64,000 nucleotides of DNA from an uncultured virus (IMG/VR IMGVR_UViG_3300020048_000100) (IMGVR_UViG_3300020048_000100), one strand, 5' to 3'; counted from the stretch's first letter, positions 1 through 64,000 are shown. Translations and numbers: made by a program. Notes: a model not told the origin generated them from the sequence alone.

Positions 1-19
1 TATTTTTTCAACTTCCTTT

Positions 20-613
20 TTAAATGTCTAATGTTTTAAGTAATTCTGTATTTTTATCAATGTTAATAATTATATTATATAATTCTGGTGAATAGATATA
101 TTGTATTAGATTTTCATTTTTACTTTCAACTAATATTTCATCTTTTATAAAATCATTTATAAAAACATTCTGGTATACAGTACCTTCTTTCAATGTTGTA
201 ATACTAATTTTAGAATTAACACTTATCAATCCTTTTTTTGTTTCTTGAACATCAAAGTTTTTAGTGAAAGAATTATAAACTTTAATAACACTTTTTCCAT
301 ATACAGCAATTTCAACAAATCGATTAATAATCTTTTTTCTTAACTGGAATGAATCACATTGAACAGACCATTGATCTGTTTTATAATAAAATCTAATTCT
401 AACCCAACCTAATTTTAAAATATTTGTTAGTATTTCATCTCTCTATTTTCCTTCTGTACCAATTTTTTCATTGTATTTATCATGTATTTCTTTAATTTCC
501 TATTGAGTTAAATTAAATAATTCTGGATTTGAAAATACAAAATCTATGTGTTTTTTAAAACTTATATTTATAATATTATTTTTATTATCTATCCAAAATC
601 CATTTTCTAACAT
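20..613 (-). CDS. Hypothetical phage protein (TAG read-through)
   Basis: ATG at 613 is in frame with track ORF 20..229; GTEGK*RDEI...GWVRIR; ends TAA. Confidence 0.75.
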
Positions 614-652
614 ATATGTTTAACACCAGCCTTTCCGATTAAAAATAAATGA

Positions 653-675
653 AAAGGGGGTTATAAACCCCCTTT
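653..675. terminator. Hairpin terminator after HU gene
   Basis: aaagggggt-tataa-acccccttt inverted repeat. Confidence 0.6.
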
Positions 676-677
676 AA

Positions 678-1022
678 TTATTCTGAAATTTCATCTCTAT
701 CAATATGAGAATCTAAAAATTCCTTCTAAAATTTTGTAGCTGTAAATTTCAAAACTTTCTTTTCTGGAATTGTAATCTTTTCCTTAGTCTAAGGGCTAAA
801 CCCAGCACGTTCTTTTCTTACAACAATCTTAAATCTACCAACTGATCCAAAGATAAATTTATCTTCTGTGTCCTTTTTTTGAAGCCATTCATAAAATACT
901 TCATCATACATATCTAATATTTCCTCAGCAAGTTGATTTGTTACCTTAACTTCAAATTCATAATCATCAAATAGACTTTGTACCTTTTCTTTAAATCTCT
1001 AAATAACATCTTTCTTAATCAT
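678..1022 (-). CDS. hup: HU/IHF-family DNA-binding protein
   Basis: FGSVGRFKIVVRKERAGFSP*TKEKITIPEKKVLKF is the HU beta-arm motif; 3 in-frame TAG; RBS upstream; ends TAA. Confidence 0.85.
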
Positions 1023-1048
1023 AATTCAATCCTCTCTCCTTTTTTTAA

Positions 1049-1408
1049 TTACTAAATTGAATAAATTAAACAATCATTAATTAAAATTTTGCTTTCACTT
1101 AATATTGAATCTATTAAATTACATAAATCTTCATTGGATAAAGTTAAAAATGGTTTTTTACAATAATTATTATGTAAATCAAATATAATATCTATATCAA
1201 AAAAATAATTTATTTTTTTATTATACAAATAATTTTTTGATATAATAGTTATTTGTAATATAAAATTATTATCTATTTTAATTATATATAACTCCTATTT
1301 ATCAATATTATTTATATTTCTAATACAAAAATTTTTAAATATATTAAATATAACAAAATCTTTAATTATTATATTTAATTTATTTTTTAATTCTAACTAT
1401 ACAACCAT
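1049..1408 (-). CDS. Hypothetical protein
   Basis: ATG GTT GTA TAG..., RBS gaggtg upstream, ends TAG-TAA. Confidence 0.55.
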
Positions 1409-1518
1409 GTTTAATAAATCACCTCTTCTAAATATAATAATTTATTATCTGTTTGATCTGTTATTTTTATTTATGCTGATAACTTAATTAAATTTCTTTG
1501 TTTTTTATAAATCTTTCA

Positions 1519-1547
1519 ATTATACAGTTTTTATTTTCATTTGTCAA
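1519..1547 (-). promoter_or_regulatory. sigma70-type promoter (leftward)
   Basis: TTGACA-17 nt-TATAAT with extended TG on the minus strand. Confidence 0.8.
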
Positions 1548-1608
1548 GCCCCCAGTATGTAACAGTTTTGTAAATCTTTTTATATTCAAAAAAAAATATT
1601 CAAAAGAC

Positions 1609-1637
1609 TTGACAAATATTTTTTTTTATGATATAAT
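1609..1637 (+). promoter_or_regulatory. sigma70-type promoter driving tRNA-Ile and downstream genes
   Basis: TTGACA(1609)-17 nt-TATAAT(1632), extended -10 TG. Confidence 0.85.
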
Positions 1638-1653
1638 CCTTATGAAAATGAAA

Positions 1654-1730
1654 GGTAGCGTAGCTCAACTGGTTAGAGCGGTCGCCTTATAAGCGACAGG
1701 TTGGAAGTTCAAGTCTTTCCGCTACCACCA
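1654..1730 (+). tRNA. tRNA-Ile (anticodon UAU)
   Basis: Acceptor GGTAGCG/CGCTACC, D arm GCTC/GAGC, anticodon stem GTCGC/GCGAC with loop CT-TAT-AA, T loop TTCAAGT, encoded CCA. Confidence 0.93.
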
Positions 1731-1766
1731 AATATAAAATCCAACTAAAATTTAGGAGGTAAAAAA

Positions 1767-1967
1767 ATGAATGAAATTACAAGAGAAGAATTTTTGCAAA
1801 ACCAAAATGATCTTTGCAAAAGAAAAAATATCCCATTTTTTATGCCATATAATGGTATTTGTTTTTCTTGTCACAATGATATTATACCTGAGCTAATAAA
1901 AAGAGGTAATGATGGAACTCATTTAGTTACAGGTTGCCCTATTTGTAATAGATCATATGATGAATGA
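1767..1967 (+). CDS. Small zinc-finger-like protein (TAG-free)
   Basis: CFSC...CPIC; RBS aggagg; ends TGA. Confidence 0.8.
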   Translation: MNEITREEFLQNQNDLCKRKNIPFFMPYNGICFSCHNDIIPELIKRGNDGTHLVTGCPICNRSYDE

Positions 1968-1995
1968 TTAAAAAATTAAAAATGGGGGTATATAA

Positions 1996-2277
1996 ATGAT
2001 TATTATCAATGATTTTGAAAATATAAAAAAGTTTGATGGGCTTGAAATGGTTTTTCTTAAACATAACACAACTCAAGAAGATTTTGTTTTAAATAAAAAA
2101 ACTGGAAACATTAAAAAAATAAAAGTTAGGAAATATCCAAACCCATGTTTTATTGGAATGTATTCTTATGAAGAATGCAAAAATATTTTTAATAGTATTA
2201 AAAATATCTTAGGACAAGGTATTGAAATTGAAGAGGTTGGTTATGGATTTAAAATCAAAAAAATAACAACAAATTAA
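1996..2277 (+). CDS. Hypothetical protein (TAG-free)
   Basis: Track ORF with RBS ggggg; ends TAA. Confidence 0.75.
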   Translation: MIIINDFENIKKFDGLEMVFLKHNTTQEDFVLNKKTGNIKKIKVRKYPNPCFIGMYSYEECKNIFNSIKNILGQGIEIEEVGYGFKIKKITTN

Positions 2278-2299
2278 AATTTAAATATTGGAGGATAAA

Positions 2300-2938
2300 A
2301 TGGAAAATAAGAATAAGACTATTGATTTCAAATTATGTATTTATAGAACAGCTTGTAAGTTGGAAGTATTTCCAACTATGGATTTAAGTGGAATTAATTT
2401 TTGTATTTATCCATCTAATCCGAATAAAACTACACAATATTCTACATATAATTATAAAGATGGAGAAAGAATCAGATTGAATTATGAAGAAGTAGAAAAA
2501 TTAAATATGTTTTTTGTAAATAAATTTCATCTGCATTCAGAAAGAAATTTAGAACTTCAAAAAACTTCATTAAGTGACACAGAAAAGTTTTTTCATAAAT
2601 TTCAAAAAGGAAATATTAGTACATCTAAAGCTTTTACAATTGGGCTTAAAGTAAATGAAAAAACAAATCAAATACAATATGTATTTACAATTAAAAATGT
2701 AGAAACAAATAAAACGTTTTATATTTATTTAGGTTTACATGAATATAGTATGATTAACAAATATTGCGATACATTTAGACAACAATATCAGTTATTGCAA
2801 TATATCAAATATAGTGAAACTTATAAAGAAAAAGTTGGAAACATTACTGAGTATGAAGAGTATTCTCCAGAGATGAATCAAGAAGGTTCTGAAAATAATT
2901 ATGAAACAAAAAATAATACATCAGATATGGGGTGGTGA
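2300..2938 (+). CDS. Hypothetical protein with acidic C-terminal tail (TAG-free)
   Basis: RBS ggagg before ATG 2300; tail ...TSDMGW is reminiscent of ssDNA-binding proteins; ends TGA. Confidence 0.7.
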   Translation: MENKNKTIDFKLCIYRTACKLEVFPTMDLSGINFCIYPSNPNKTTQYSTYNYKDGERIRLNYEEVEKLNMFFVNKFHLHSERNLELQKTSLSDTEKFFHKFQKGNISTSKAFTIGLKVNEKTNQIQYVFTIKNVETNKTFYIYLGLHEYSMINKYCDTFRQQYQLLQYIKYSETYKEKVGNITEYEEYSPEMNQEGSENNYETKNNTSDMGW

Positions 2939-2942
2939 TTTT

Positions 2943-3650
2943 ATGAATAAAATGGATGAAGTTGTTATTTAGTTTAATGTTGATGATTTAAAAGATTATG
3001 AAATATTGAAAAATTTTGATGATAATAGTGAATTTTATTTAAAGAAATTTAATAAGGAAAAACTGCAAAAGATTTTTATTAAAATGGGTAATGATAAAAA
3101 ATTATACAATATGAAGAGAGGGGATTTAGAAAATAATCCAAAATTTAGGCATTTGATTTAGTATTTTTTGGTTATTGATAAAAACACATCAGAAGTTGTA
3201 GTATACAAAAGAAAGAAACCAACTGAAACCAGACTTGTAGATAATTGCAGTATTGGTTGGGGTGGGCATATATAGTTAGAAGATTAGGAGTGTTTTTTTA
3301 ATCCATTAAAAACAATTGATACTCTTTTATTACGAGAAATGGTGGAAGAAATTAAAATTACTTCTAACAAAACCGCATCTAATAATATTACAGTTGATTG
3401 TGCCAACGATGTATATGTGTTATAGACAAATGATAATGTTGGGAGTGTTCATTTAGGTATAGTATATTTTATTAACGTCAATGAAATAAAAAACTCAGTT
3501 GAATCAAATGAAGAAGAGAATATTATTGTTGATTATATCAAGTTTGATGAATTAAAAAAGAAAATAAAAAATAATGAATTACAATTAGAAAGTTGGTCTA
3601 AAGCAATTTAGATGAGTGAAGAAATCCCAAATAGTATTTACAAATCTTAA
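2943..3650 (+). CDS. NUDIX-family phosphoesterase (COG4112-like)
   Basis: ETRL..CSIGWGGHI, LLREMVEEI, VGSVHLGIV, LESWSK; several in-frame TAG; ends TAA. Confidence 0.8.
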
Positions 3651-3677
3651 TTTTATTTTTATAAGGAAGTTTTAGTC

Positions 3678-4925
3678 ATGGATTAGATAAACATAAGTAA
3701 TCAATATATATTTCCAGAAGAAGAATAGAAGGGGTTAATAGTAAAATATAAAAAATATAAGCAAGGATTAATTGAATAGATTTAGAATGATAATCAATTA
3801 AAAATTGGGCTATTGACAAACAGAAAGGACGAGATAGAAGCAAAATTATATATAATAATGAGAAGTTTATAGATTGTTATAATAAATAAAAAAGTAATGA
3901 AAAAAGATGAAAAATATTTTAATTCTAAAACAAATTTAATAGATGGTGATTAGCAAATATTTGAAGATTTGGTAATACATTCAGTACAACAGATGTTTGC
4001 ATATATTGATAAAATAGATTTAAAAAGAAAGTTATATTCGATTTTATAGAAAATTTAGAACAAATAGTCTTTAATACATTATTTTAAATTTTATGCAGTA
4101 AAAAATACTATTTTTATAACTGACAATAGTACAGAATTTGAAGAAGATAGTGATTTTGAGTATATGTTAGATAAATTGTATTATGAAAAAAATAAAAATA
4201 CTCACAATGATTTTTTTGATGAATTAACACAAGAATAGATTATGGAAATGGAACTTGATGAAAATAGTATTTTAAATAAAAAACAATTAGTATAGAAAGA
4301 AACAAATATAGCAAATTTAAAAAAAATATCTGATATGAAAAACTATTGCGGAAATACAAATTGGGTTTATAATTTTGAAATATTTGAAAAAGTAGATAAA
4401 ATATTAAAATATGGATTTTGTGAGGACTTCAAAGGAATATTGATTAAACTTTATATCATAAATGTGCTGGTCTATGAAAATATAAAAAGATATAATAAAA
4501 ATCTTAATAAATTTACAATTCTTATGGAATCAAAAACTAAATATATTAAGACAAAATTTAATTTGAAAACTGGATTTGAAAAGATAATTAAAATATTTAT
4601 ATCTGATTATCTAAAAAAAGACCCATTTATCTATATAGGTTCTAAAGCAGTATCACTATATTCATCTCTAATCTTATATTTGTTATTGATAGAAAATAAA
4701 ATACCAGCAGAATAGTTTACAGAAAATGAAATTAAAAGTATGGCAAATATGAGGCATGAATTATCAGACATAACTCAATTTTTAGTTTAGGAAGAAGTAA
4801 AAAATAAATTTGATTTTAAAACATTAGTTATGAAATTTAGTTTTTCTTTATGTAAAGAACAAATTGGTAATAAATTAAAAATAAGTTATGTATTAAAAAA
4901 CAATGGGGATTAGGATGTATTATGA
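3678..4925 (+). CDS. Hypothetical protein with a possible sigma-factor region-2-like N-terminal half
   Basis: Frame includes track ORF 4335..4715; FEDLVIHSVQQMFAYIDKIDLKRKLYSIL*KI*NK resembles sigma region 2; ends TGA. The ORF is well supported, the function is tentative. Confidence 0.55.
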
Positions 4926-5101: not shown

Positions 5102-6313
5102 ATGTAGAGAAGGAAGTAGAATTAGAATAATAATGAGCAACCTCAATTAACTGAATTACAGGCTGAATTGATGGAATATGTTGGATTCTTAAAAAACCAA
5201 ATGCCATCTTAGTTTTTATTATCTTCAAAAGAGAATATTATTAAAACAGGATTTTTATTATATGATGAAATAATTGGTGGTATTCCTTTAGGAAAATATA
5301 TTTTAATTAGTAGTCAAGAGGGTTGTGGTAAAACTACATTAATGGTACAATTATAGTAGGCACTGCAAAAACAAGCATACAAGACAATGTATATTGATAC
5401 AGAAAGTAGTATGTCTGAAAGACGAATGAAAGAACTTGGCATGGATGTTAATAAAACAATTTATGTTGTGCCAGATTGTTTGGAAGATTAGTATAGATTG
5501 ATGTGGGAAACAATGAAGCAAAAAGAAATTAAAGAGGATGTTTCACCATTTGTATTTTGTTTTGATTCTAATACATAGACTCCAATTAGACAAGAATTAG
5601 AAGATGATGCTTTATCAGATAAACAACCTGGTCAAGTAGCAAAAGTAAATAGTCTATAGTTGAAAAAACTAATTAAACCTTTATAGAGAACAAATTCAAC
5701 CTTAATTATGATTAGTCAAGTAAGAGATAAATTAAATTTGGGGTTTGGATAGAGTTTTGGACCAAAAGATACAACAACTGGTGGTAGATAGCTAAAATTT
5801 TATGCTCATCAAGATATTGTATTGTAGCCAAAATCTGATGGAACAATGGAAAAAATGGAAATAGATGGTAAAATTATTTCTATTAAATAGAGAAAGAACA
5901 GGATATAGAGCCCAAATATTGAATTTTACATGTAGTTAGATTTTAAAAATGGATTTTCTGATTAGATTTCTAACTTTGTATATTTATCAAATCTTAAAGA
6001 ATCAGATTGGAAAGATTAGAATTTTGAATATATACCATTCAAAACAACTGGTGGTTGGTATGAATTTAAGTATGAAGATAAATATGTAAAGAAGTTTAGA
6101 AGTAAAGAATTTCCAGCATTATATGAAACAGATGAGGAATTTAATAAGTATGTAAAAGAAATAATTTTGCAACACATTCATCAAGTTCATGGTAATTCAA
6201 TGTATGAAGAATCTATTGAAGAAATTGTAGAAGAACAAATTGAAGAATCTACCAATGAATTATTTAACGAAACTGTTACAAAACCTGAAGAAACAGTTTG
6301 GGAAGAAAAGTAA
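5102..6313 (+). CDS. recA: RecA/UvsX-like recombinase
   Basis: GGIPLGK, EGCGKTT, YIDTES, FDS, ISQVRD, TTGGR*LKFYA, KNRI*SP, TGGWY; ends TAA. Confidence 0.92.
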
Positions 6314-6372: not shown

Positions 6373-8211
<1,839 letters not shown>

Positions 8212-8236: not shown

Positions 8237-8268
8237 AAAATGTGGGATTTTAATCCCACATTTTTTTT
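8237..8268 (+). terminator. Intrinsic terminator after dnaK
   Basis: tgtgggatt-tt-aatcccaca followed by a T8 run. Confidence 0.8.
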
Positions 8269-8273
8269 AATAC

Positions 8274-8302
8274 TTGACAAATCACTTTTTTTATGGTATA
8301 CT
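8274..8302 (+). promoter_or_regulatory. Repeated sigma70-type early promoter
   Basis: TTGACA-17 nt-TATACT; near-identical copies at 14818, 16445 and 18237. Confidence 0.85.
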
Positions 8303-8343: not shown

Positions 8344-8952
8344 ATGAAAATATTGAAAGATGGTAGAGATTTAAACAATTCTGTATTTATTGTTGAATCA
8401 CATGAAGTAGATTCAAATGGTAATTTTTTAAAGTTATATTTTGAAAGTACAAATAATTCTAAAAGAAAAATTAGATTGGTTGATAATAATAAAGAATATT
8501 TGATTAATGTTGGAGAATATCTTGATAAAGATTATAATTTATATGTTGAACTTAAACTTTTGCTTTGGATTAAAGGATTGTATCATATTTTAGTTAATAA
8601 TATTAAAAATAAAAAATACAATTCAAAATTAGAATTAACTGACGCATCTGTTGAATCAATTAAAGAAGTAGATTTAGTTGAACATATTAAAATAATTACT
8701 AAGTATGGTTATTTTGATGATATTTTAGTAGAACCTTTAAAAATTACTACCCAAGAAATTTTAGATATTATAATTAAAAATGATTATAGTTTTTATGGAT
8801 CAATAATTTCAAAAAATAAATTGTTCATAATGCTAAATGATTATATGGAAATAGATACAGAAGTGTATGAAGCTTGTGATAAAGATTATTTTATTGCAGA
8901 TGTTGGTTTGGAAGATTCGTTAGAATTCCTTTTTTTAATAAGTAATAATTGA
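8344..8952 (+). CDS. Hypothetical protein (TAG-free)
   Basis: 202-aa track ORF after the promoter with RBS; ends TGA. Confidence 0.8.
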   Translation: MKILKDGRDLNNSVFIVESHEVDSNGNFLKLYFESTNNSKRKIRLVDNNKEYLINVGEYLDKDYNLYVELKLLLWIKGLYHILVNNIKNKKYNSKLELTDASVESIKEVDLVEHIKIITKYGYFDDILVEPLKITTQEILDIIIKNDYSFYGSIISKNKLFIMLNDYMEIDTEVYEACDKDYFIADVGLEDSLEFLFLISNN

Positions 8953-8973
8953 TGAAATTGAGTTAAGTTAAAT

Positions 8974-9300
8974 GGGGGCGAAAAGGGTTCGACACGTTTG
9001 ATGAAATTAGTATTTTCATGGGTGTTTTGAATACTACACTAAAAAGTATTCACAAAAATTAAACGACAAAATTAAATCTTTTTTTACCACCAAATTTAAA
9101 AAATCATCAAAGCCTGTATTTCAGCAAGTTTACCAACCTGTTTAGATGTAGGCTTGAGTTACAAGTAATAAAAAAATCTTAATTCATTTTATTCTACATT
9201 AGAGGATTAAGAACTCCCGAATAAAATGTAGATAACCATGTAAAACAAAATACTAATTGAACAAGGGTGGACGTGGGTTCAATTCCCACCGCCTCCACCA
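8974..9300 (+). ncRNA. ssrA: tmRNA
   Basis: 5' GGGGGCGAAAAGGGTTCGAC; 3' GTGGGTTCAATTCCCACCGCCTCCACCA; acceptor stem with G3.U70; internal tag frame 9065..9157. Confidence 0.95.
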
Positions 9301-9331
9301 TTTACTTTAAAATGTAAAGAAGGTGGTTTGT

Positions 9332-9604
9332 TTGCAAGAACAAAGTTCAGTTTTAAATACACTTAATTTACTTGGTAATGAAGATGCAATCGTTCTAATA
9401 ATTACAAAAGAGGGATGTAGTCAATGTACAAAAACAAAGGAAATATTAAGAACACAAAACATTGATTTTATGGAAGTAAACTATGAAACTTTATCTAAAA
9501 CTTAGTTGATGAAACTCTATAATTTTAGAAAATCCAATAACATAGAAAGAATAACATTACCTATACTAATATTTTCAAAAGAATCAGAATATTGGGTTTT
9601 TTGA
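9332..9604 (+). CDS. Glutaredoxin/thioredoxin-like protein
   Basis: ITKEGCSQCTKTK CxxC motif and ITLPILI cis-Pro motif; TAG read-through; ends TGA. Confidence 0.75.
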
Positions 9605-12938: not shown

Positions 12939-12949
12939 TTGATTAAGTT
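12939..12949 (+). promoter_or_regulatory. Putative phage late-promoter motif TTGATTAAGTT
   Basis: Same motif upstream of genes at 43832, 62090 and 63915; variants at 20188, 43161 and 62733. Confidence 0.55.
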
Positions 12950-12991
12950 AAAAGTAAAAAAGAATAACTAAGTAAATTGGTGGTGATTACA

Positions 12992-13354: not shown

Positions 13355-14752
13355 GTGCTAAAAGAAATATAGAATGTGGTAGTTGATACTAATGTATTAT
13401 TGGAAGGAAATTCCAAATTTTGGAAGGTGATTACAGGCAAAGCAAAGTAGACAGAATCATTTTTATCTAATCCATTTTTAATTGATAAAGAAGTAAAAAT
13501 ATGTGTATTGCAAATTGTATTAGAAGAATTAGATGGGTTAAAAAAGAATTTTACAGATAATGTAGGATACTATTAGAGAAAGACAATTCAAAAAATATAT
13601 TTAAGTTTAGAAAATATTAAATTTTTGCAAGATGATAAAGACAATATAGACAATAGATTTACACAAATAAATTAGGATAATATCATATTAAATAGTATTT
13701 TAGAAAAACAAACAAAAACTGAAAATGAATCATTCATTTTATATACTAATGATATATAGTTATTATTAAAATAGAAAATGTATAATGTACAAACAATAAC
13801 TGATATTGAAAAGATTGATATTGATAAAGTAAAAAACAATGTTTCATATTTAAACTTAGATGATGATCTATCAAAAGAAAAGATGGATTATATAAATGAA
13901 TTACTAACAAGCAAAACATGTGATTCTAATTTCTTACATATTAAAAAAGGATATACACTAATAGAAAGTAAATCTTCTAATTTATATATTCCTGTTAAAA
14001 ACACCTGTGATAATAATAAAATCAATATTATTGATATTACTAATTCTTTCCATCATAATAAAAGAACTAAAAAGATTATGCCTAAAAACAATGAACAATA
14101 GATTTTTTTAGATGCACTAATGGATGATAATATTAAAATAATTACTTCATTATCTAAGTCTGGAACTGGAAAAACACTATTATAGTTATATGCTTAGATA
14201 CAATTATTATCATTACCAGAAAATCTAAGAAAATATAATAAAATCATATATGTTGTAAACCCATCTACATCATAGTCAAAGCATAAAGAACTTGGATTTT
14301 TGCCAGGAACACGTCATGAGAAGATACTTCCTTTTATGCAAGGGATTTTAGATAACTTAAATTATTTATTTAATGATGAAATACCAGAAGAATATAATTT
14401 AGAACTTGTAGATAAGACTAATAGTTTTGAGATAAGACCTATAAATCATATTAGAGGAAGTAGTATTGCTAAATCACTTGTTATTCTCGATGAAGTACAA
14501 AATCTTACAGGATTAGAAATCAAAACTGTATTTTCTCGTGTTTAGGATTCTTGTAAGTTTATATTATTGGGCGATGTGAATCAGATAGATGAACATATTT
14601 CATAGGATTTTACAGGTATTGTAAGACTTATTAGTCATATGAACAAGCATACAGAAAAATTACCTTGGTTAAATATTCAATTGAAAGAATCTATCAGGTC
14701 TAAATATCTTGAAGCCCTTAGTGATTATTTTGATGATGTATTTGATGAATAA
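13355..14752 (+). CDS. phoH: PIN-domain PhoH-family ATPase
   Basis: VVDTNVLL, VLEELDGLKK, TND (PIN domain); SGTGKTLL*L, LGFLPG, IRGSS, ILDEVQN, LGDVNQID; ends TAA. Confidence 0.9.
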
Positions 14753-14766
14753 TTAACTTAGTGCCT

Positions 14767-14800
14767 AAAATAACCCCTAAATTGGGGTTATTTTTTTTTT
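14767..14800 (+). terminator. Intrinsic terminator
   Basis: aataacccc-taaatt-ggggttatt followed by a T run. Confidence 0.75.
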
Positions 14801-14817: not shown

Positions 14818-14846
14818 TTGACAAATTACTTTGTTTGTGGTATACT
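14818..14846 (+). promoter_or_regulatory. Repeated sigma70-type early promoter
   Basis: TTGACA-17 nt-TATACT. Confidence 0.85.
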
Positions 14847-14885
14847 ATATATGTGAAAGAAATAATAAGGTGGTGAATAAGCAAC

Positions 14886-15155
14886 ATGGTTGAAAACATA
14901 GATTTATTTGAAAAAATAAATAACATTCTTCAAAAACATGGGTTATCACTTAATAAAGCTAAAAATTGTGCAATTAAAAATCAACATAAAGAAAAATTAT
15001 TTTTAGGTGATGATTTCTATGTTTTATGGAAAAAATCTTTTAATGATGAAAATCGTGGTAGCTCAGAAGAAATATTGTTTAGGAGTAAAACATTAGAACC
15101 AATTGTTAAATGGATGAGTGAATTTATTCCAATGGAGGAATCAAACAATGGATAA
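14886..15155 (+). CDS. Hypothetical protein (TAG-free)
   Basis: Track ORF with RBS aaggtgg; ends TAA. Confidence 0.75.
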   Translation: MVENIDLFEKINNILQKHGLSLNKAKNCAIKNQHKEKLFLGDDFYVLWKKSFNDENRGSSEEILFRSKTLEPIVKWMSEFIPMEESNNG

Positions 15156-16389
15156 TTTAGGAATGTCAATACAAGCTGTAAGAACACCAATATTAGATAC
15201 ATCAAAAAGTAAGTTTACAACAAATGATTTCTTAGATTTTATTAAAAATTCTTTACATGGAATGAAATTTGAACAAGATACAATAGTTTGTATTACAGAA
15301 TCTCTTCTTGCAAGGGCACAAAATAATTATGTAACTATTGATGATATTGCCGAAGATATTAATAAAAAATTTTACAAGCAAATAACGAATAGAAGTATTG
15401 GACTTTTATTTCCTATTTTGAGTAGAAATAGATTTTCAAATATACTAAGAGGTGTTTGTAAAAGCGGAATTAAAAAATTGTATATTCAATTTGATTTTCC
15501 GAAAGACGAAGTAGGAAACTCCATTATAGATGAATATGATGATTACGATGAGGAATGCAAAAATAAAGTATATTCATATGGCGAATTTATTGAAAAATTT
15601 GGGAAGCACACACATAAATTTACTGGTGTTAACTACGTTGATTATTATAAATCTATTATAGAAGAATATAATATTCAATATGAATTTATCTTTTCAAAAA
15701 ACCCAATGACAATATTTGAATATTCATATAATGTTTTAATTTGTAACTTTAGAAATTATGAAAAATTATATAATAAATTAAAGAAAACAATATATAGTGT
15801 ACTAACATTAAAAGATATTTGTGATACAAAAAATGATAAAACAGGCTATAATGAAAAATATGGATTACTTGGGTCTAATAAAGTAGGAGAAGATAAATTA
15901 AAACTATTCCCGAGAGAAGTAGATAAAGAAGGAAATAGATATGTAGAGCTAATAAAAAATATGATTGACTCTAATCTAAACACAAATACTAAAGAACACT
16001 ATAAAATAGATGTTATGATTTATGGTGATGGATCATATAAAGACCCAGATACAGAAATTTGGGAACTATCTGATCCTGTTGTTTGTGTTGATTATACAGA
16101 TGGATTAGAAGGTACTCCAAATGAGTTAAAAATTAAATATATTGCTGATGAAATTACTGCAGAAGATAAAGAAGAAAAAATAAAAAACATGATAAAAGAA
16201 AAAGATAATCTTAAAGGAAAAATGGAATCACAAGGAACAACACCAAGAAGATATGTAAATTTGATAGGAAGTTTATGTGATTTAGTTTCTGGTAGTGGAG
16301 ATAAAGGTACACCAATTATTTTGATTCATAATTATTTCAAGAATTATTCAGATGTTATAGATAAAAAAAGTAAATATTTTATGTTATAA
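15148..16389 (+). CDS. F420-0:gamma-glutamyl ligase-like (CofE-family) protein (TAG-free)
   Basis: ITESLLARAQ, LSRNRF, GLLGSNK, YGDG.YKDP...WEL.DPVV, GTPNE, QGTTPRR, CDLVSGSGDKGTP; RBS ggagg before ATG 15148. Confidence 0.85.
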   Translation: MDNLGMSIQAVRTPILDTSKSKFTTNDFLDFIKNSLHGMKFEQDTIVCITESLLARAQNNYVTIDDIAEDINKKFYKQITNRSIGLLFPILSRNRFSNILRGVCKSGIKKLYIQFDFPKDEVGNSIIDEYDDYDEECKNKVYSYGEFIEKFGKHTHKFTGVNYVDYYKSIIEEYNIQYEFIFSKNPMTIFEYSYNVLICNFRNYEKLYNKLKKTIYSVLTLKDICDTKNDKTGYNEKYGLLGSNKVGEDKLKLFPREVDKEGNRYVELIKNMIDSNLNTNTKEHYKIDVMIYGDGSYKDPDTEIWELSDPVVCVDYTDGLEGTPNELKIKYIADEITAEDKEEKIKNMIKEKDNLKGKMESQGTTPRRYVNLIGSLCDLVSGSGDKGTPIILIHNYFKNYSDVIDKKSKYFML

Positions 16390-16398
16390 AAATAACAC

Positions 16399-16426
16399 AA
16401 ATAGCCCTTAATTGGGCTATTTTTTT
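16399..16426 (+). terminator. Intrinsic terminator
   Basis: aaatagccc-ttaatt-gggctattt followed by a T run. Confidence 0.75.
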
Positions 16427-16444
16427 AACTTATAAAATAACTAC

Positions 16445-16473
16445 TTGACAAATCACTTTTTTTATGGTATACT
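16445..16473 (+). promoter_or_regulatory. Repeated sigma70-type early promoter
   Basis: TTGACA-17 nt-TATACT. Confidence 0.85.
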
Positions 16474-16512
16474 ATGTCTGTGAAAAAAAATAAAAGGGGT
16501 GGGCAAAAAATA

Positions 16513-16800
16513 ATGTGGATAAAAACTGTTGATGAAAATTATGAATACAATAGCATGTATCTGAATATGGATAGTGGAATGTTTTTTGTTTTAGCATTGG
16601 ACAATTCAGTTTTATATTTGTCTTTTGGTTGTAAAGGCGAAAAAACAGAAGCACGAACAATTTATAAAAGCACAAATTCAGAAGAAATATGCAATATTTA
16701 CAAGGCACTTATAAAAAATGTAGATGAGTTACTCAATGATGGAGTGTCTTTTATGGATTTTCAAGGGATGATAGAGTATATCCAAAGTCATAAAGCCTAA
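16513..16800 (+). CDS. Hypothetical protein (TAG-free)
   Basis: Start taken at the ATG after RBS ggggtggg, because the track start lies within the promoter; ends TAA. Confidence 0.7.
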   Translation: MWIKTVDENYEYNSMYLNMDSGMFFVLALDNSVLYLSFGCKGEKTEARTIYKSTNSEEICNIYKALIKNVDELLNDGVSFMDFQGMIEYIQSHKA

Positions 16801-16821
16801 GCGAGATTGGAGGGGATTTTA

Positions 16822-17082
16822 ATGTATAAATGTCCAAATTGTGGAGGAAAGATCGTTGCATACTATTCAATTCCAGAGGTAGCATATATATATGACATTA
16901 CATCAAAACCAGATATAAATGGTTTTTTAGATAGGGAATATCTTGAAGATGAATATATCTTTAAAAGCCTAAAAGAGGTATTTTATGTTTGCATATGCTA
17001 TGACTGTGGCGAAGAGTTTCCAGCAAATTCGTTAGAAGAATTTGGAAAGAAATATGCACACTTATGGGTGGATGTAGATTAA
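16822..17082 (+). CDS. Zinc-ribbon protein (TAG-free)
   Basis: CPNCGG...CYDCG; RBS ggagggg; ends TAA. Confidence 0.75.
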   Translation: MYKCPNCGGKIVAYYSIPEVAYIYDITSKPDINGFLDREYLEDEYIFKSLKEVFYVCICYDCGEEFPANSLEEFGKKYAHLWVDVD

Positions 17083-17111
17083 ATCTTAAAAATAATGAAG
17101 GGGTGATTTAA

Positions 17112-18215
17112 ATGAGAAAAATATGTTATGTGCAAAAAGTAGAGCAATTAATACCTATTGATGGAGCAGATCAAATTGAAATTGCAAAAATAAAAGGTTG
17201 GAATGTAGTAGTTCAAAAAAACAGTTTTAATATTGATGATATGTGTGTATATTTTGAGATTGATTCTTTTATTCCAAAAGAAATCGAATATTTTTCTTTT
17301 TTAAGTAAATACAATCCTATTAAAAAAGATTTATTTGGTGAAGAAGGATATGTCATAAAAACTATTAAACTAAAAGGAGTTATTAGTCAAGGATTGATTA
17401 TTCCTCTTAAAGGGCTTATTGATAATAAACTTTTAGAAGATAGGGAATATAAAATAGAAGAAGATGTATCAAGCCAATTAAAAGTAAAAATATATGAAAG
17501 ACCAGAAGAAAGGGGTTCAAATAATTTTGAAAGCACAAATCAACCATTTCCTACTTTTATCCCAAAAACAGATGTAGAAAGATTACAAAATATTCTTGAA
17601 TATTTTGAGGAATTAACAGAAATGAGTTTTGAAATTACAGAAAAAATAGATGGAACAAGTTGTACTATTTATTATTATAATGATGGTAATACTATTAGTA
17701 AAGGTGTTTGCTCAAGAAATTTAAATGTAACAGATTCAGATAATATCTATACATTTGTTAATACAAAATACAGAATATTGGATAAATTAGAAAAATTAAA
17801 TAGAAATTTAGCTATTCAAGGTGAAATTGTTGGACATGGAATACAAAAGAATCCATATCAATTAAATGAATTACAATTTTATATATTTGATGTTTATGAC
17901 ATTGATAAAAAAAGATATTTATTTCCAAAAGAAAGAAGGGATTTAATAAATACGTATTTTGATACATATTCTATAGGTATACCTGTAAAACATGTTCCTT
18001 GTGTTTCTCTGTACTCTTATGTATTTAAAGATGTATTTAAAACAATGGATGATGCACTAAAATTTGTTAATACAGAATTGAAACATTCTAAAATATCTCA
18101 TTTGTGTAAAACAATTGAAGGTATGGTTTTTAAAAGTAATACTTTAAGCAAATATGGAGATAGAATTACTTTTAAAATTATAAACAATAATTACTTATTA
18201 AATGAGAAGGATTAA
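17112..18215 (+). CDS. RNA ligase, Rnl2/DRB0094 family (TAG-free)
   Basis: N-terminal PIDGADQIE...GWNVVV...YFEIDS...GVISQGL; TEKIDGTS, QGEIVG, FYIFDV, EGMVFK, FKIIN. Confidence 0.9.
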   Translation: MRKICYVQKVEQLIPIDGADQIEIAKIKGWNVVVQKNSFNIDDMCVYFEIDSFIPKEIEYFSFLSKYNPIKKDLFGEEGYVIKTIKLKGVISQGLIIPLKGLIDNKLLEDREYKIEEDVSSQLKVKIYERPEERGSNNFESTNQPFPTFIPKTDVERLQNILEYFEELTEMSFEITEKIDGTSCTIYYYNDGNTISKGVCSRNLNVTDSDNIYTFVNTKYRILDKLEKLNRNLAIQGEIVGHGIQKNPYQLNELQFYIFDVYDIDKKRYLFPKERRDLINTYFDTYSIGIPVKHVPCVSLYSYVFKDVFKTMDDALKFVNTELKHSKISHLCKTIEGMVFKSNTLSKYGDRITFKIINNNYLLNEKD

Positions 18216-18236
18216 AAAAATAAAATAAATACCTAC

Positions 18237-18265
18237 TTGACAAATCACTTTTTTTATGGTATACT
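18237..18265 (+). promoter_or_regulatory. Repeated sigma70-type early promoter
   Basis: TTGACA-17 nt-TATACT. Confidence 0.85.
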
Positions 18266-18309
18266 ATGTATGTGAAAGAAAGAAAAAAACAAAAAAAGGA
18301 GTGATTTGA

Positions 18310-19416
18310 ATGAAAACAAACATCAAAAAAACATTTAAGGGTAAAGAGGTAAAAGACTTTTTATCAACTTTCAATGTTGTAGAAACTAAACAAGAAAATG
18401 GTATGTATACTCTTAAATCTCCAATTGAACAAGTTACATTATCCCCTATTACTGGATTTACCACTGCTGATGGAAGTGTTATTAAATCAAAGCAAGATAA
18501 ACATGTTCTACATACAAATTTTTTAAATGAAGATGAAAGAACTTGTATTATTACGAGCAAATATGAACCAGTTCTCTTATCCAGTCTTATTAAAGAACTT
18601 CAAGATGTTGTTGAAGAGAACAATATGCTTGATCTAATACATACATTAACAATAAAATCAAATGGTCAGATACTGTTTGATTTAGAAAATGAAGAATCAA
18701 AAATGACTCAGAAAAGTGTTAAAGATTTTGTAGTATATAAAAATGTAGAAGAAATTTATAAAGAATTAGTAGTAGATGGGTCAGATAAACTTATTCATGA
18801 AGTAGATTTTGGAAAGTACAGACCATCTTTTATGCTTACAAATTCAGTAGACGCAACAAAGCCAGTTACATTAAAAATGGGTATATTTAGAATTGTATGC
18901 TCAAATGGATTGATTGCATATCCAGAAGGATATAGAGATATTCAGGACTCACTTACAAGAGTAAAACATATGAAAGCTAAAAAAATAATGGAATCGATTA
19001 GAGAAAAATTAGGACTTATTCCTGCTCTTTATAGTAATTTTGACAATTCAATAATCAATGGAGAAATTGAATTTAATGAAATAATTAAGAAAGACTTGCA
19101 TTTCTGGTTGAATGGATATTATAGTGATATTGTTGATCCTATTCAGAATAAAAAAGATTACCTCTCTGAAAGAACAAAAGAAACTGCAAAGAAAGGAAAA
19201 GAATTGGTTAGTGTTGTAATTGATTCATCAAGAAATATTATGGATTTTGAAAACTTGACTTCATATCTATCTAAACCAGAAATAACTTCTAAATGGGCTT
19301 CTGGAAAAAAAGAAAATAGAGATGTAGATATTAAAGGATTGACTGATGTAGTAACAAAGTTTATTCCAGAATTTAGAGCAATTACGTTCAAAAAGTTAAA
19401 TGCAATGACAAAATAA
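18310..19416 (+). CDS. DUF932/DUF945-like protein (TAG-free)
   Basis: LTNSVDATKPVTLKMGIFRIVCSNGLI...KH; ends TAA. Confidence 0.7.
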   Translation: MKTNIKKTFKGKEVKDFLSTFNVVETKQENGMYTLKSPIEQVTLSPITGFTTADGSVIKSKQDKHVLHTNFLNEDERTCIITSKYEPVLLSSLIKELQDVVEENNMLDLIHTLTIKSNGQILFDLENEESKMTQKSVKDFVVYKNVEEIYKELVVDGSDKLIHEVDFGKYRPSFMLTNSVDATKPVTLKMGIFRIVCSNGLIAYPEGYRDIQDSLTRVKHMKAKKIMESIREKLGLIPALYSNFDNSIINGEIEFNEIIKKDLHFWLNGYYSDIVDPIQNKKDYLSERTKETAKKGKELVSVVIDSSRNIMDFENLTSYLSKPEITSKWASGKKENRDVDIKGLTDVVTKFIPEFRAITFKKLNAMTK

Positions 19417-19456: not shown

Positions 19457-19517
19457 ACCCCATCAAATAAATAGATGGGGTTTTTTCTTAAAAAAATAAG
19501 GGGGATAAATTACCCCC
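19457..19517. terminator. Tandem hairpins at a convergent gene junction
   Basis: accccatc..gatggggt followed by a T run, and gggggataaattaccccc. Confidence 0.65.
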
Positions 19518-19538
19518 TTGCTATGATTAAATTTAGTA

Positions 19539-20228: not shown

Positions 20229-20648
20229 TTAATATACATTAACATTTGGTATATATTGTATTTTATGATCACCATTATGATATTTATGAATTACACATTT
20301 TATATAATATGAAATTGAATCATAAATTATATTTTGACCATATGTTGATGGAGTTAATCTAAGTCCTATTTGCTAATAATTTGGTTTTCGATTTATTTTT
20401 TTTGTTAACATTGCATTTGCTTTTGTATTTATTTCAGTGTTTGAACTCCATTCTTCTGTTGTACCAAAAGGTTTAACATTTCTTGAATATTCCCATTTTT
20501 GAACACTTGAAACATCATATGCTACTTTGGTTTTATTTTGATTTTCTTTAATTTTAGTAATATTGTTTGTTATAGTTCCACTCCACATTCCACTTATTCC
20601 AGGTTGTATATCATGCGGGTTATCTCCAATATATTCTTTTATTCCCAT
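20229..20648 (-). CDS. Hypothetical protein
   Basis: Track ORF extended through TAG to TAA. Confidence 0.7.
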
Positions 20649-24109: not shown

Positions 24110-25663
24110 TTAAAGAGTCTAAGAATAATTCTTTACAACAAATCTGATTTCAATAAATTCCAACTATTTAACTGGAATAAATCTGATTTTTATAGGTAAA
24201 TAATTTCTCTCAATAAATTCTGGTCTAATATCTAATTCAAATTGATAATCAACAATTCCATTTTGCTATTGTACTTCTGACATAAAAGCTGTAATTGAAT
24301 TTGAAATCTAAGAAAAAGTAGCTTGATTCATAGGTTCAAACAAAAATCTTCTCATTCTTTCCTAAATTGTTGTTTCAATATATATCTAAACCATTCTCTA
24401 ATTAATTCTTGAAAGCTAACTATTTCTCATATAATGGGTTTTTTGACCCCAAATATAAGTTCCTTGACCCTAAAATTTAACAATTGGATTTACATTAGCA
24501 AGATACATTGTATCTCCTTCAAGTTTGTTTAATATTGATAATGGTTCTTTTGCTATGTTTCCTCTATTTAACCCAGCCATCTATTCCCAAATATATCCAC
24601 CAGATTCTAATACATTTAAGAATATTTCCATAGCATTAACAGATGGAGGATATGGGATAAATTGAAAATTGGTAGTTGTATCTAAAACCCAAGGATGGTA
24701 CAACTACAAATAACTTGCTTCAAGCCCAACTTTATAACGATAAGTATATCCATAGTGCTAAGCACCCATATCTCTATTAACAATTTTCTACCATTTTTCC
24801 CAACCTTGTGCTGGAGAACCATCTTCTTGCACAACATCATCATTTCCAACACCCAAATCTTCTGGAATAATTTCTGATAAAATTAAAAAATCTTTTCGTG
24901 AATACTACAAATCAACAAAAGAATTTACTTCTGAACTACTAAATTGCCCCTAAGTTACTAAGAAATTAAACCTAAATTCATATGGATTCTATAAAATTTC
25001 AGGTGTGATATATGTTGTTGGATCAATTCTCTAACTGTTTTTACCATTCTAAAGTTGTAACTAATTTGTACTTGATCTTGTAATCAATTCCTAAAAAACT
25101 TCTGGTGTTAAATCAGCTTTTGAAATAGTTATATAATTTGAAACATTGTTTGTAAATGTAATCAAATCTTCAATAGTTCTTGCAGTAAATGTTTCAATTA
25201 ATTTAGCTTCGTAAGAATTAGATTCTTTAATATAAACATCGAAAGCATAAATAATAGACCTAATCATATAAAATTTAACTTGAATTTTGTTTCCAAATGT
25301 ACCACTATATTTCTACTAAATAGGTACATATGTTTCAGAATTTAAATCTAATTCATAATCCTAAATATCAGTTGGAATATTGGAACAATTTAATCTAAAG
25401 CACAATAAGTTACATTGTCGCGAAGATAGCCTATACTACTAATCAAAAGAAATTTCATTAAGCTAATTAACATCAGTTGGAAGTCCAAATGTATTAATAA
25501 ATTCTTTTGTACCTTGTGTAATAGTTGTATATTTTGGTCCCCAATCAGATTGGAAAAAAATAAGAATTGTACGAGCATGAGTAATATTAATATCTGGTAC
25601 AATTGATTGGTCAATTTCATGTACTTTTACACCAGGGCTTATAAACAATCCATTTCTCTACAT
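24110..25663 (-). CDS. Tail sheath protein (paralogue 1)
   Basis: FISPGVKVHEID, WGP, FG.P, YHPW, PYPPS, WE*M*GLNRG, NPIV, WGQKT, LSRIN, FLFEP, PVK*LEFI; ends TAA. Confidence 0.92.
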
Positions 25664-43799: not shown

Positions 43800-43896
43800 T
43801 TATTTTCACCACCAATATTATTTGCATGTTTAACTTAATCAAAATTATTCTTTTTTTTTTACTAATGTATAAAATAAAACCCCAAAATTAAGGGGG

Positions 43897-44610
43897 TTAT
43901 AATTTTTCAAAATATGTTAGTAATTCATCGGGCTTAACTTTTTCTGGGGATGTATCATATAATTTAATCCCTATATTATCATATGATCTAACAATTAGTT
44001 CTATATTTCCAATACAATTTATACTGTTTATTGTTATAAGGGAATTTATTATTTTAATACAATCTAAAATTAATTTAATTTTATAATTACTATCTGCATA
44101 TTCTGTTAATTGTATAGCATTTATTATATTAGTTAGCCCAGAAAACAAATTATTTGCTATATCAAATGGTAAATTCCAAAATTGCAATACAGATTTTTTG
44201 AATTCTTCATCGTTATAATTATTTTTATATCTATATATATCAAAATATTGTATTGTATTTAATCCTATTTTGTATATATGTACACCAGTTTTTTCAGCAA
44301 CCTAAAACCATCCATTCCCTATATATGGAAATCCGAATATATATTCGGAGTTAAAACTATTATACAATTTTTCTTTTAATAAATCATTTATAAATTTAAT
44401 TGGGTTATTTAATATAAATTTTAATAAATTATAAGAAGTTGATCCGTATACTGCCTTAACCCATTGTAAGAATGGGTCTGAAATATCTTTTATATAACTA
44501 TTAAAACTGTTTTCCATATATCCAAAAAACGTTTGCATATTATCGTATGTCACTAAAAATATATCTCCAGCCTTTAATATTTCACTATATTTCGTATTAT
44601 AAGAAAGCAT
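43897..44610 (-). CDS. Hypothetical protein
   Basis: Two track ORFs joined through TAG; ends TAA at a hairpin. Confidence 0.7.
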
Positions 44611-62048: not shown

Positions 62049-62089
62049 ATTTTAACCCCCAAAAATACTGCAATTTATTTTTTACAAAT

Positions 62090-62100
62090 AACTTAATCAA
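62090..62100 (-). promoter_or_regulatory. Putative late-promoter motif heading the tail/baseplate operon
   Basis: TTGATTAAGTT 42 nt upstream of the baseplate gene start. Confidence 0.55.
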
Positions 62101-62127: not shown

Positions 62128-62156
62128 TTGACAAATTGATTTTTTTATGGTATAAT
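62128..62156 (+). promoter_or_regulatory. sigma70-type promoter
   Basis: TTGACA-17 nt-TATAAT, TG extension. Confidence 0.85.
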
Positions 62157-62198: not shown

Positions 62199-62420
62199 AT
62201 GATTAAAAACTTTAAATTTAGAAATACAAGAATGTATACATTTTTCTTATGTCTTAAATTCAATATAAGAATGAAAATTGGTGAATGTTTATAGATAATT
62301 AAGAAAACTGGTAATTATAAATATGATTTTGATAAAAATGAATGGATAAAAATTAAAAATAATGAAAATTATAATTTTAATGATTCTAAAAATAAAAATC
62401 TTTTAATTAGAAAAAAATAA
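62199..62420 (+). CDS. Hypothetical protein, paralogue of the next gene
   Basis: RBS aggag; one TAG; GNYKYDFDKNEWIK; ends TAA. Confidence 0.65.
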
Positions 62421-62436
62421 AAAGAGGTGCATTAAC

Positions 62437-62721
62437 ATGTTTAAAAATGAAACAATCGCTAAAACATATTTGTATCTACATAATAGATATGGTGATACTA
62501 AATTATATCAATTTTTTATTGGTATATATTTTAAGATAATACATAAAATAGCATTTATTAAATCTCTTAATAAAAAAAGAGGTAATTATAAATATGATTT
62601 TGATAAAAAAGAATGGATTAAAAAAGAAATTTTTTTTAATTTAAATGATTTCAAAAATACAAATAATACAGATTTTGATGAAAAAGTAAATAAAACAAAA
62701 CGTTGTTTACCAATCAAATAA
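62437..62721 (+). CDS. Hypothetical protein (TAG-free)
   Basis: RBS gaggtg; GNYKYDFDKKEWIK; ends TAA. Confidence 0.75.
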   Translation: MFKNETIAKTYLYLHNRYGDTKLYQFFIGIYFKIIHKIAFIKSLNKKRGNYKYDFDKKEWIKKEIFFNLNDFKNTNNTDFDEKVNKTKRCLPIK

Positions 62722-62788: not shown

Positions 62789-63241
62789 ATGGAATCTACT
62801 TTTAATTCAAAAGATGTATTTATTAATAAACTGTTTAATTTTCTTAAAAATAGTACATTTATAAATGATTTTAATTTTGAGAATGATGAAATAAACACTA
62901 TTGATCAATTTGAAAATAGATTTGGGCATAATGTAAATGAAGATGCAAAATTTACTACAATGACAATAACATTAGATACTGGTATTAATTTTGTATTTTA
63001 TAATACACCAGAAACAGATAAATTTAAAGTTGGTGTTTATAGTTATGATTTTCTTTCTAAAAGAAGATATAAACTATTTTATTCTGATACACCAATTACA
63101 AGTGAAGAGTTTAATAAAATACTTATTTTGCTAAAAGATAGGCATTTCAGTGTTGACAATCCAATTAAATCATTGGAAGATTAGTTGTATTTAACATCAG
63201 ATGATGAAACTCCATTGAATGAAATTGAAGAAATAATTTAA
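62789..63241 (+). CDS. Hypothetical protein
   Basis: Track ORF extended through one TAG to TAA. Confidence 0.7.
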
Positions 63242-63878: not shown

Positions 63879-64000
63879 TTTGAATCATCCTCTCTTTTTT
63901 TGAAATTTATAAATAACTTAATCAAAAAAATCTTAAAAAAATAAAAAAAAAGACTCCTATTTTTTAGGAGTCTAAATCGTCTAATTGCAATAATATAATA

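Follow-up and report, generated by a model that had tools for sequence, protein, structure and literature searches.

The window examined here is the whole 64,000-nucleotide stretch of the uncultured virus IMGVR_UViG_3300020048_000100 (IMG/VR), a phage that uses the codon TAG as sense. Within it lies a block of six consecutive genes (14886–19416, plus strand) that lack in-frame TAG and have TAA or TGA as their stops, as the initial annotation had described and as the gene table of the window (59 non-overlapping open reading frames, ORFs, of at least 60 aa) bore out. The block follows a terminator-like hairpin that closes the PhoH operon (14767–14794; 11 pairs, then a T run; this and all block features are on the plus strand unless stated), and its first promoter (14818–14846) is a variant of a type termed class A below, with the sequence TTGACAAAT...TGGTATACT ahead of the leader ATATATGTGAAAGAAA. 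Next come a gene of 89 aa without a family match (14886–15155) and a CofE-like gene (F420_ligase; 15118–16389) of 423 aa. After another terminator-like hairpin (16399–16422), a class A promoter with the identical 29-mer TTGACAAATCACTTTTTTTATGGTATACT and the conserved leader (16445–16473) precedes a small gene (16474–16800), a gene of 91 aa with weak zinc-finger matches only (16807–17082) and a DRB0094-type RNA ligase with an OB and an RNA_ligase domain (17112–18215). The small gene probably starts at the ATG at 16513, after the ribosome site GGGGTGGG, since the ORF as listed begins within the leader (sequence judged by eye). A further class A promoter, with the identical 29-mer and conserved leader (18237–18265), precedes a gene of 368 aa with a weak DUF932 match (18310–19416), and a terminator-like hairpin on the minus strand (19498–19519) separates the block from a convergent virion operon.

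The window is a TAG-recoded, myovirus-like phage. Its G-C content is 23%; under table 11 it contained 37 ORFs of at least 80 aa, the longest of 423 aa, while with TAG as sense there were 73 such ORFs, packed head to tail, the longest of 1,458 aa. The nearest genome, G001 (1.3 Mb, 70 contigs), carries a 98%-identical copy of the block. All 70 contigs were sampled, large ones over their first 20 kb and small ones entire, and divided into a host-like part (44 stretches, 608 kb, approximately 25% G-C, densely coded in table 11) and a phage part (28 stretches from 26 contigs, approximately 159 kb, coded only when TAG is sense). Of the latter, about 60 kb corresponds to the window and about 95 kb adds phage DNA beyond it; the window is part of a large, low-GC phage of at least 155 kb. 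Across phage contigs, the long-ORF share of the DNA rose from approximately 0.0–0.6 to approximately 0.8–1.4 once TAG was taken as sense. Most window genes have 2.4–6.6 TAG per 100 codons, with a maximum of 51 in one gene. It had been noted that replication, chaperone and virion genes are rich in TAG, and this was so for the RecA-like protein (5102–6313; 18 TAG), DnaK (6373–8211; 15), PhoH (13355–14752; 12) and the tail sheath (24110–25663, minus strand; 27), all of them assigned with Pfam, as were an HU-like protein (678–1022, minus strand) and virion proteins with RCC1 and FN3 repeats. The 130 complete ORFs of the window and the extra contigs end in TAA (89) or TGA (41), all of which are readable by RF2; TGA accounts for 11 of 309 stops among the long host-like ORFs.

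Statistics were taken from a pooled set comprising the window and the approximately 95 kb of extra contigs (137 ORFs, 49,516 codons, 1,568 in-frame TAG), from which six dubious ORFs were left out (window 1498, L042 5948 and 10350, L075 5546, L086 3036 and L087 553). TAG occurs in 118 of the 137 (approximately 86%), at 3.4 per 100 codons; the other 19 total 3,430 codons. Besides the block, the TAG-free genes of the window are three at 1767–1967, 1996–2277 and 2288–2938 (66, 93 and 216 aa, plus strand), one of 202 aa at 8344–8952 (plus strand) and one at 62437–62721, all ending in TAA or TGA, again as first annotated. The block has no TAG in 1,446 codons, where the pooled rate predicts 45.8 (P(0) = 6.2e-21). 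This deficit is confined to the reading frame, because the six block genes contain 72 off-frame TAG (47 + 25) and all 19 TAG-free genes contain 180 (107 + 73), a frequency per codon not below that of other genes. The absence of TAG is therefore an effect of reading frame and not of composition. Between the window and the G001 strain no TAG was gained in TAG-free genes among 1,998 codons compared. Codon exchange at TAG sites was too rare for inference, since only 2 of 572 sites differed between strains (to CAA and GAG).

The initial annotation had placed the TAG-free genes closely behind consensus TTGACA-17-TATAMT promoters. The pattern TTGACA-N16-18-TATAMT occurs seven times in the window, at 1547 (minus strand), 1609, 8274, 14818, 16445, 18237 and 62128, and the more restrictive TTGACAAAT-N11-TGN-TATAMT had six window matches against 0.04 expected; when the -10 element was loosened to TATA(A/C/T)T, nine more promoters were found in the extra contigs, one of them intragenic. 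The features of sigma-70-type promoters are present, namely TTGACA and TATAAT-like hexamers 17 nt apart, a TG extension, a gene downstream and a terminator upstream, with terminator-like hairpins directly upstream of the promoters at 8274, 14818 and 16445. These promoters fell into two classes. Class A consists of a near-identical 29-mer, TTGACAAATCAC...TGGTATACT, with a TATACT -10 element, after which come the leader ATGTNTGTGAAAGAA and a strong ribosome site; it is found at 8274, 14818 (the variant), 16445 and 18237 in the window, at 10387 in contig L042, and at 3595 and 4124 in L043. Class B mostly has TATAAT and lacks the class A leader; its copies are at 1547 (minus strand), 1609 and 62128 in the window, 76, 6144 and 12353 in L042 (that at 6144 having TATACT but a different leader), 485 in L043 and 553 in L087. 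The first gene was TAG-free behind all seven class A copies, and class A units hold 12 TAG-free genes; the first protein gene was TAG-free behind only one of eight class B copies. A count of TAG per gene by promoter class thus produced the association that had been proposed, with the dividing line at class A and not at the consensus promoter as such, for class B also feeds TAG-rich genes.

A third element, TTGATTAAGTTA, is a candidate promoter element of a phage-directed transcription class. Allowing one mismatch, it had 11 matches in the window against 3.46 expected, and 19 when the extra contigs were included; 12 of these precede a credible gene start by at most 80 nt, and each of the 12 genes, starting 19–74 nt downstream, bears TAG. 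Of the other matches, four are deep within genes and three have no usable downstream gene. Hence TAG-free first genes occurred at 7/7 class A sites and at 1/20 sites elsewhere (8 class B plus 12 TTGATTAAGTTA; Fisher p = 9e-6), a value that is descriptive only, given that the sites are repeats and the classes were drawn after inspection. In the 608 kb of host-like DNA there were no class A or B patterns and one copy of TTGATTAAGTTA.

The remaining promoters of the window were arranged as follows. A class A promoter with the identical 29-mer (8274–8302, plus strand), behind a terminator at 8237–8264, precedes the 202-aa gene and, in the same early-type unit, a phage transfer-messenger RNA (tmRNA; 8974–9300, plus strand). 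The class B promoter at 1609–1637 (plus strand; TATAAT, no conserved leader) has as its first product a tRNA-Ile(UAU) (1654–1730, plus strand; ARAGORN and Rfam), followed by the three TAG-free genes at 1767–2938. ATA is the commonest isoleucine codon in the host-like genome (5.8% of codons). Two previously noted exceptions were correct: class B at 62128–62156 (plus strand) precedes two small genes (62199–62721, plus strand), of which 62199–62420 has one TAG and 62437–62721 none, and the leftward class B promoter at 1519–1547 (minus strand) feeds genes with 3, 3 and 2 TAG, the HU-like gene among them. A TTGATTAAGTTA motif lies 27 nt before a TAG-bearing gene at 12939–12950 (plus strand), and further exact copies are at 43831–43842, 62089–62100 and 63914–63925 (minus strand).

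The initial annotation had cited code 15 phages for a similar bias of recoded codons toward late genes; for the meaning of the codon that comparison does not hold, as the alignments indicate that TAG specifies alanine in this phage and not glutamine. Against 106 homologues of DnaK, 7 of 15 TAG sites fell in columns where alanine is commonest (101, 105, 102, 85, 101, 83 and 45 of 106). One site, 59, fell in a glutamine column (105/106), which counts against alanine and is taken as a substitution. When the phage ribonucleotide reductase (RNR) was compared with 96 others, 16 of its 35 scorable TAG sites fell in alanine-majority columns, two of them invariant (96/96), and none of the 35 in a glutamine column. 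Summed over the DnaK and RNR columns, the log2-odds were +38.8 for alanine, -55.8 for serine and -163.6 for glutamine. Pfam scores were higher with alanine than with glutamine at TAG in six of seven domains: RecA (113.6 against 97.8 bits), PhoH (127.7 against 121.1), PIN (63.0 against 55.0), DnaB_C (102.0 against 94.3), DnaJ (94.1 against 84.4) and DUF4116 (50.6 against no match); only DnaJ_C reversed this order (122.5 against 124.1). Two DUF4116-type repeat proteins (L080:2-574 and L092:1965-3146), with TAG at up to 25 of 190 codons, matched Pfam only with alanine. In TAG-bearing genes GCN codons make up 1.76% and TAG 3.40% (approximately 5.2% together) and glutamine 2.9%, the corresponding values for the host-like genome being 4.58% GCN and 2.84% glutamine. 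Of 14 near-identical DnaK entries in public protein collections, 13 have glutamine at every one of the 15 TAG sites and one has it at 14 of them; by the evidence here, these are mistranslations. No report of TAG as alanine in a phage was encountered in the literature searched, as judged by titles and the opening lines of abstracts. To our knowledge, no NCBI genetic-code table has this assignment.

The tmRNA scored 97.6 bits with RF00023 (gathering score 47) over model positions 1–374, and a G3:U70 acceptor pair of the alanine type could be read in its alignment. Its tag frame is DKIKSFFTTKFKKSSKPVFQQVYQPV-TAG-M-TAG-A-TGA, with a resume codon on which ARAGORN and the Rfam alignment agreed; the tag would read ...QPVAMAA if TAG is alanine and halts after ...QPV in the standard code. 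The host-like tmRNA encodes ADKTELAYAA. Since an Ala-Ala end arises in the phage tag only if TAG is alanine, the tmRNA supports the alanine reading, and a tag that contains TAG is a new kind of code-dependent element. Two observations concern the tmRNA locus itself. RNA-library contigs in X10 and X18 stop at 9298, two bases before the tmRNA 3' end, a weak hint of a mature end; and in three RNA-library runs a strain variant is seen at 8922–8971, where 158 other bases take the place of the 48 that separate the 202-aa gene from the tmRNA.

The TAG-free genes did not compensate for the missing TAG with GCN codons. Their GCN content is 2.1%, against 5.2% GCN plus TAG elsewhere, so that the proteins they encode are poor in alanine rather than rich in GCN; their G-C content is 25.0%. 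Composition does not readily explain this, because the host-like genome maintains 4.6% GCN at equal G-C content. The phage as a whole avoids GCN more than this equally AT-rich genome does (1.8% against 4.6%). The CofE-like protein illustrates the point: of 15 columns with alanine in at least 60% of 119 homologues, it keeps alanine at two, the others being Ser (4), Thr (2), Cys (2), Leu, Asp, Lys and two gaps, and none being TAG. Its alanine content is 1.4%, against 4.65% in the homologues, although its G-C content is phage-like. At conserved alanine columns, RNR has TAG at 16 and GCN at 3 of 46, and DnaK has TAG at 6 and GCN at 26 of 41.

The TAG-free genes had been suggested as candidates for host takeover or for the code switch itself, and of these two roles only the first was reflected in recognisable families. 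The RNA ligase (17112–18215) matched TIGR02306 with 196.6 bits (cut-off 151.15) and PHROG 968 at 7e-80, and the extra contigs contribute a TAG-free NadR-like AAA_28 kinase domain and an MT-A70 DNA methylase (DNA adenine methylase); most functions there were assigned by eye from translations, Pfam and PHROG scans having covered subsets of the 84 extra ORFs. These named genes point to takeover or anti-defence roles. The CofE-like protein matched PF01996 with 104.4 bits (cut-off 25), with approximately 150 extra residues inside the matched span, but no NCBIfam model at E 1e-10 or better; its nearest homologues, of 394 aa and approximately 47% identical, have automatic names only. The 66-aa protein (1767–1967) matched only a PHROG of unknown function, the 202-aa protein beside the tmRNA had no match in Pfam, PHROGs or the ESM Atlas, and altogether 13 of the 19 TAG-free proteins were without a named family or function. 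Fast-evolving, mostly nameless small genes are the usual profile of early takeover and anti-defence genes. The DUF932 protein had only eight relatives among 1.84 billion representatives; its AlphaFold model (pLDDT 69.6) found no match in the PDB with Foldseek at E 0.001 or better, and a likeness to the anti-CRISPR AcrIIA11 (VIA-align Z 7.3, rmsd 4.3, 116 residues) was within background and was rejected as evidence.

The likely host was assessed from the host-like contigs of G001. Of 309 ORFs of at least 200 aa, 231 end in TAA, 67 in TAG and 11 in TGA; the TAG-ended ORFs (22%) have short extensions past the stop (median 7 codons), and prfA and prfB are both present above NCBIfam cut-offs. The supposition that the host uses the standard code was thus upheld for the co-binned genome, while its link to the phage is a matter of binning. 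If this is the host, it reads UAG as a stop, and a code switch is needed. Among 401 genomes belonging to the host-like order, a terminase search located this phage in G001 only (25 TAG inside the match); 19 others had distant terminases without internal stops. Scans by protein and by promoter pattern found no relatives in IMG/VR, nor in a genome contig collection from which near-identical records are possibly absent, while a metagenome contig collection yielded three short related contigs. In all, 20 runs from 16 studies (wastewater, sludge, lagoon, groundwater and landfill) contain part of the window, and two of these runs may represent the source sample. The tmRNA unit and portions of the block are covered by contigs from four RNA libraries; such contigs cannot rank genes or show starts, and the uncovered parts of the block carry no meaning. 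Some of them fuse class A promoters to the upstream sequence of the L043 cassettes (loose ends at 8261 and 16434), so that cassettes were either shuffled at the repeated promoter or mixed by assembly. Finally, window 1–4923 is inverted relative to 5028–8922 in contig C9 of G001, with approximately 940 bases between them that are absent from the window; an invertible segment, a rearrangement or a difference in assembly may account for this.

These observations are probably best explained if the code-neutral cassettes are made first, under the host code, with TAG as a timer at the level of translation in addition to promoter class. Selection would keep a minority of genes free of in-frame TAG, and these genes would be grouped in short cassettes, each with a strong sigma-70 host-type promoter, a conserved leader and its own terminator. 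Host RNA polymerase and unmodified ribosomes could then express the cassettes at the start of infection, before UAG is suppressed; we infer their early status from promoter type. Genes with TAG, even those behind host-type promoters, would be completed only after a tRNA-Ala(CUA) is present and RF1 has been outcompeted or disabled.

Several observations weigh against this explanation. In the extra contigs, perfect class B promoters directly precede genes for RNR (41 TAG), an exonuclease-like 5'-3' protein (18), a DnaB-like protein (10; its link to the promoter is a contig join judged by eye) and primase (8), the remaining class B first genes being small. TAG-bearing genes also stand directly downstream within 'early' units, since 2901–3650, with 6 TAG, overlaps the 3' end of 2288–2938, and a glutaredoxin-like gene (9323–9604) follows the tmRNA; transcription class and TAG content are therefore not identical partitions. 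There are TAG-poor genes elsewhere, with one TAG each (43897–44610, 20229–20648 and 62789–63241). Neither the window nor the approximately 159 kb of related phage contigs yielded a tRNA(CUA), and neither did an Rfam tRNA scan of G001; the search used ARAGORN with default and loose settings including introns, Rfam at E up to 1, a scan for a CTA anticodon arm with a T-arm, and the folds of nine intergenic regions. However, the phage DNA is in 26 pieces, often broken at repeated promoters, such that a short tRNA cassette could be lost. Lastly, the phage was assigned to its host through co-binning alone, and the RNA-library contigs show the presence of parts of the region in metatranscriptomes, but neither starts nor timing.

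A more specific version of the timer is offered tentatively, and is rather doubtful as a whole: that a natural code with TAG as alanine works as a timed switch within a host that uses the standard code. It would have four components. The alanine-starved, TAG-free early cassettes would be translated under the host code; later genes would take approximately two thirds of their alanine from TAG; the end of the tmRNA tag, ...AMAA, is written in TAG, so that tagging would alter after the code flips; and the avoidance of GCN suggests an attack on host alanine decoding, or on RF1, by a nameless early protein.

It is unlikely that the TAG-free genes are instead recent standard-code imports (morons), too young to have acquired TAG, with promoters that reflect cassette-wise gain and not timing. 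The early region does vary among relatives; in contig L110, a CofE-like gene 91% identical to that of the window lies amid different TAG-free neighbours. The CofE-like gene has bacterial homologues with approximately 47% identity, class A promoters are linked in RNA-library contigs to sequence from upstream of other cassettes, and TAG-free genes diverge approximately three times faster than others between the window and the G001 strain (113/1,998 codons, 5.7%, against 286/16,598, 1.7%). Yet the TAG-free genes are phage-like in G-C (25.0%) and GCN content (2.1%, unlike the 4.6% of host-like genes), and the CofE-like gene has had ample time to replace 13 of 15 conserved alanines, without a single TAG. 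DnaK, apparently acquired as well (approximately 65% identity to bacterial DnaK), already has 15 TAG, and the contrast between 0 in-frame and 180 off-frame TAG across 19 genes and 3,430 codons needs purifying selection.

That the cassettes are themselves the code switch, with proteins that neutralise RF1 or that mature or charge a UAG-reading tRNA, would be compatible with the timer but is quite unlikely. With up to 51 TAG in a gene, RF1 would need to be almost fully outcompeted, and the phage's own stops (TAA 89 and TGA 41 of 130) are all readable by RF2; the tRNA-Ile(UAU) and the tmRNA both stand directly behind early-type promoters, and 13 of the 19 TAG-free proteins are nameless. Candidates would be the CofE-like ligase, the RNA ligase together with the DUF932 protein, and the 202-aa and 216-aa proteins. 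However, no phage release factor was found, and no TAG-free protein matched a release factor, an aminoacyl-tRNA synthetase or a tRNA-modifying family; the named members suit anti-defence roles, and the DUF932 model gave no informative fold.

A true host that reads UAG as alanine would require no switch, and the TAG-free genes would then reflect, for example, a second, standard-code host. We consider this very unlikely. It would agree with the lack of a phage tRNA(CUA) and with a host link made by binning, and the tRNA set of G001 is incomplete, with no Ala, Val, Pro, Asp or Phe among 26 matches. Against this, table 11 gives dense coding in every host-like contig of the bin, with TAG-ended ORFs and prfA as described, and a selected absence of TAG from promoter-defined cassettes is hard to explain without a phase in which TAG is a stop. 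Chance, or an artefact of composition in an AT-rich genome, is hardly credible, for while the short TAG-free genes (66–108 aa) are not significant singly (P0 0.03–0.12), the block is (6e-21), off-frame TAG is as frequent as elsewhere, and the promoter pattern occurs six times against 0.04 expected.

Early modules behind strong host-type promoters are familiar from the T4 early genes, the SPO1 host-takeover module and the T5 pre-early genes. Such modules contain clustered, small, fast-evolving genes with near-consensus extended -10 promoters and their own terminators, and include anti-defence RNA ligases and DNA methylases. The present phage differs from them in that the genetic code itself also sets its early genes apart, and in that other host-type promoters, forming a second set, drive genes whose products the host code cannot complete. 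Among stop-codon-recoded phages (crAss-like, Lak, Garnet, Topaz, Jade and others) in standard-code hosts, early standard-code genes followed by a code switch are proposed by Borges et al. (bioRxiv 10.1101/2021.08.26.457843), who give means of 26–71% recoded genes for clades with such hosts. The present phage and those phages have in common in-frame TAG in many genes, a likely standard-code host, a code-neutral minority of genes that would be made first, and TAA as the favoured stop. They differ in several respects: here TAG aligns with alanine, and a tmRNA has TAG in its tag frame ('alanine' and 'tmRNA' each occur 0 times in that preprint); 86% of ORFs are recoded, above the means given there, replication and chaperone genes included; a recurring cassette of promoter and leader distinguishes the code-neutral set; and no suppressor tRNA, release factor or synthetase was found in what is a fragmentary genome. 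Code 15 (TAG as glutamine) is reported to have been validated by metaproteomics in crAss-like phages (PMC9523058); these phages likewise reassign TAG and retain TAA and TGA as stops, and the difference is in the residue.

The partition is therefore real and of a kind already modelled for recoded phages, with an early host-code phase as its likeliest reading; what is new here is a code in which TAG, from its alignments, is alanine, together with an alanine-poor early set and a tmRNA tag that contains TAG. A code-neutral early set corresponds to the published start-up model, in which the switch itself is not yet dissected, and near-complete recoding with few, sharply bounded exceptions turns the 19 TAG-free genes into a shortlist for RF1 silencing or a UAG-decoding factor. 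If TAG is alanine, pipelines and public protein collections mistranslate a phage that is widespread in wastewater. Alanyl-tRNA synthetase (AlaRS) ignores the anticodon, and so a tRNA-Ala(CUA) would be the simplest suppressor to evolve; if the reading proposed here is true, alanine would be an expected, and so far unreported, target of stop reassignment.

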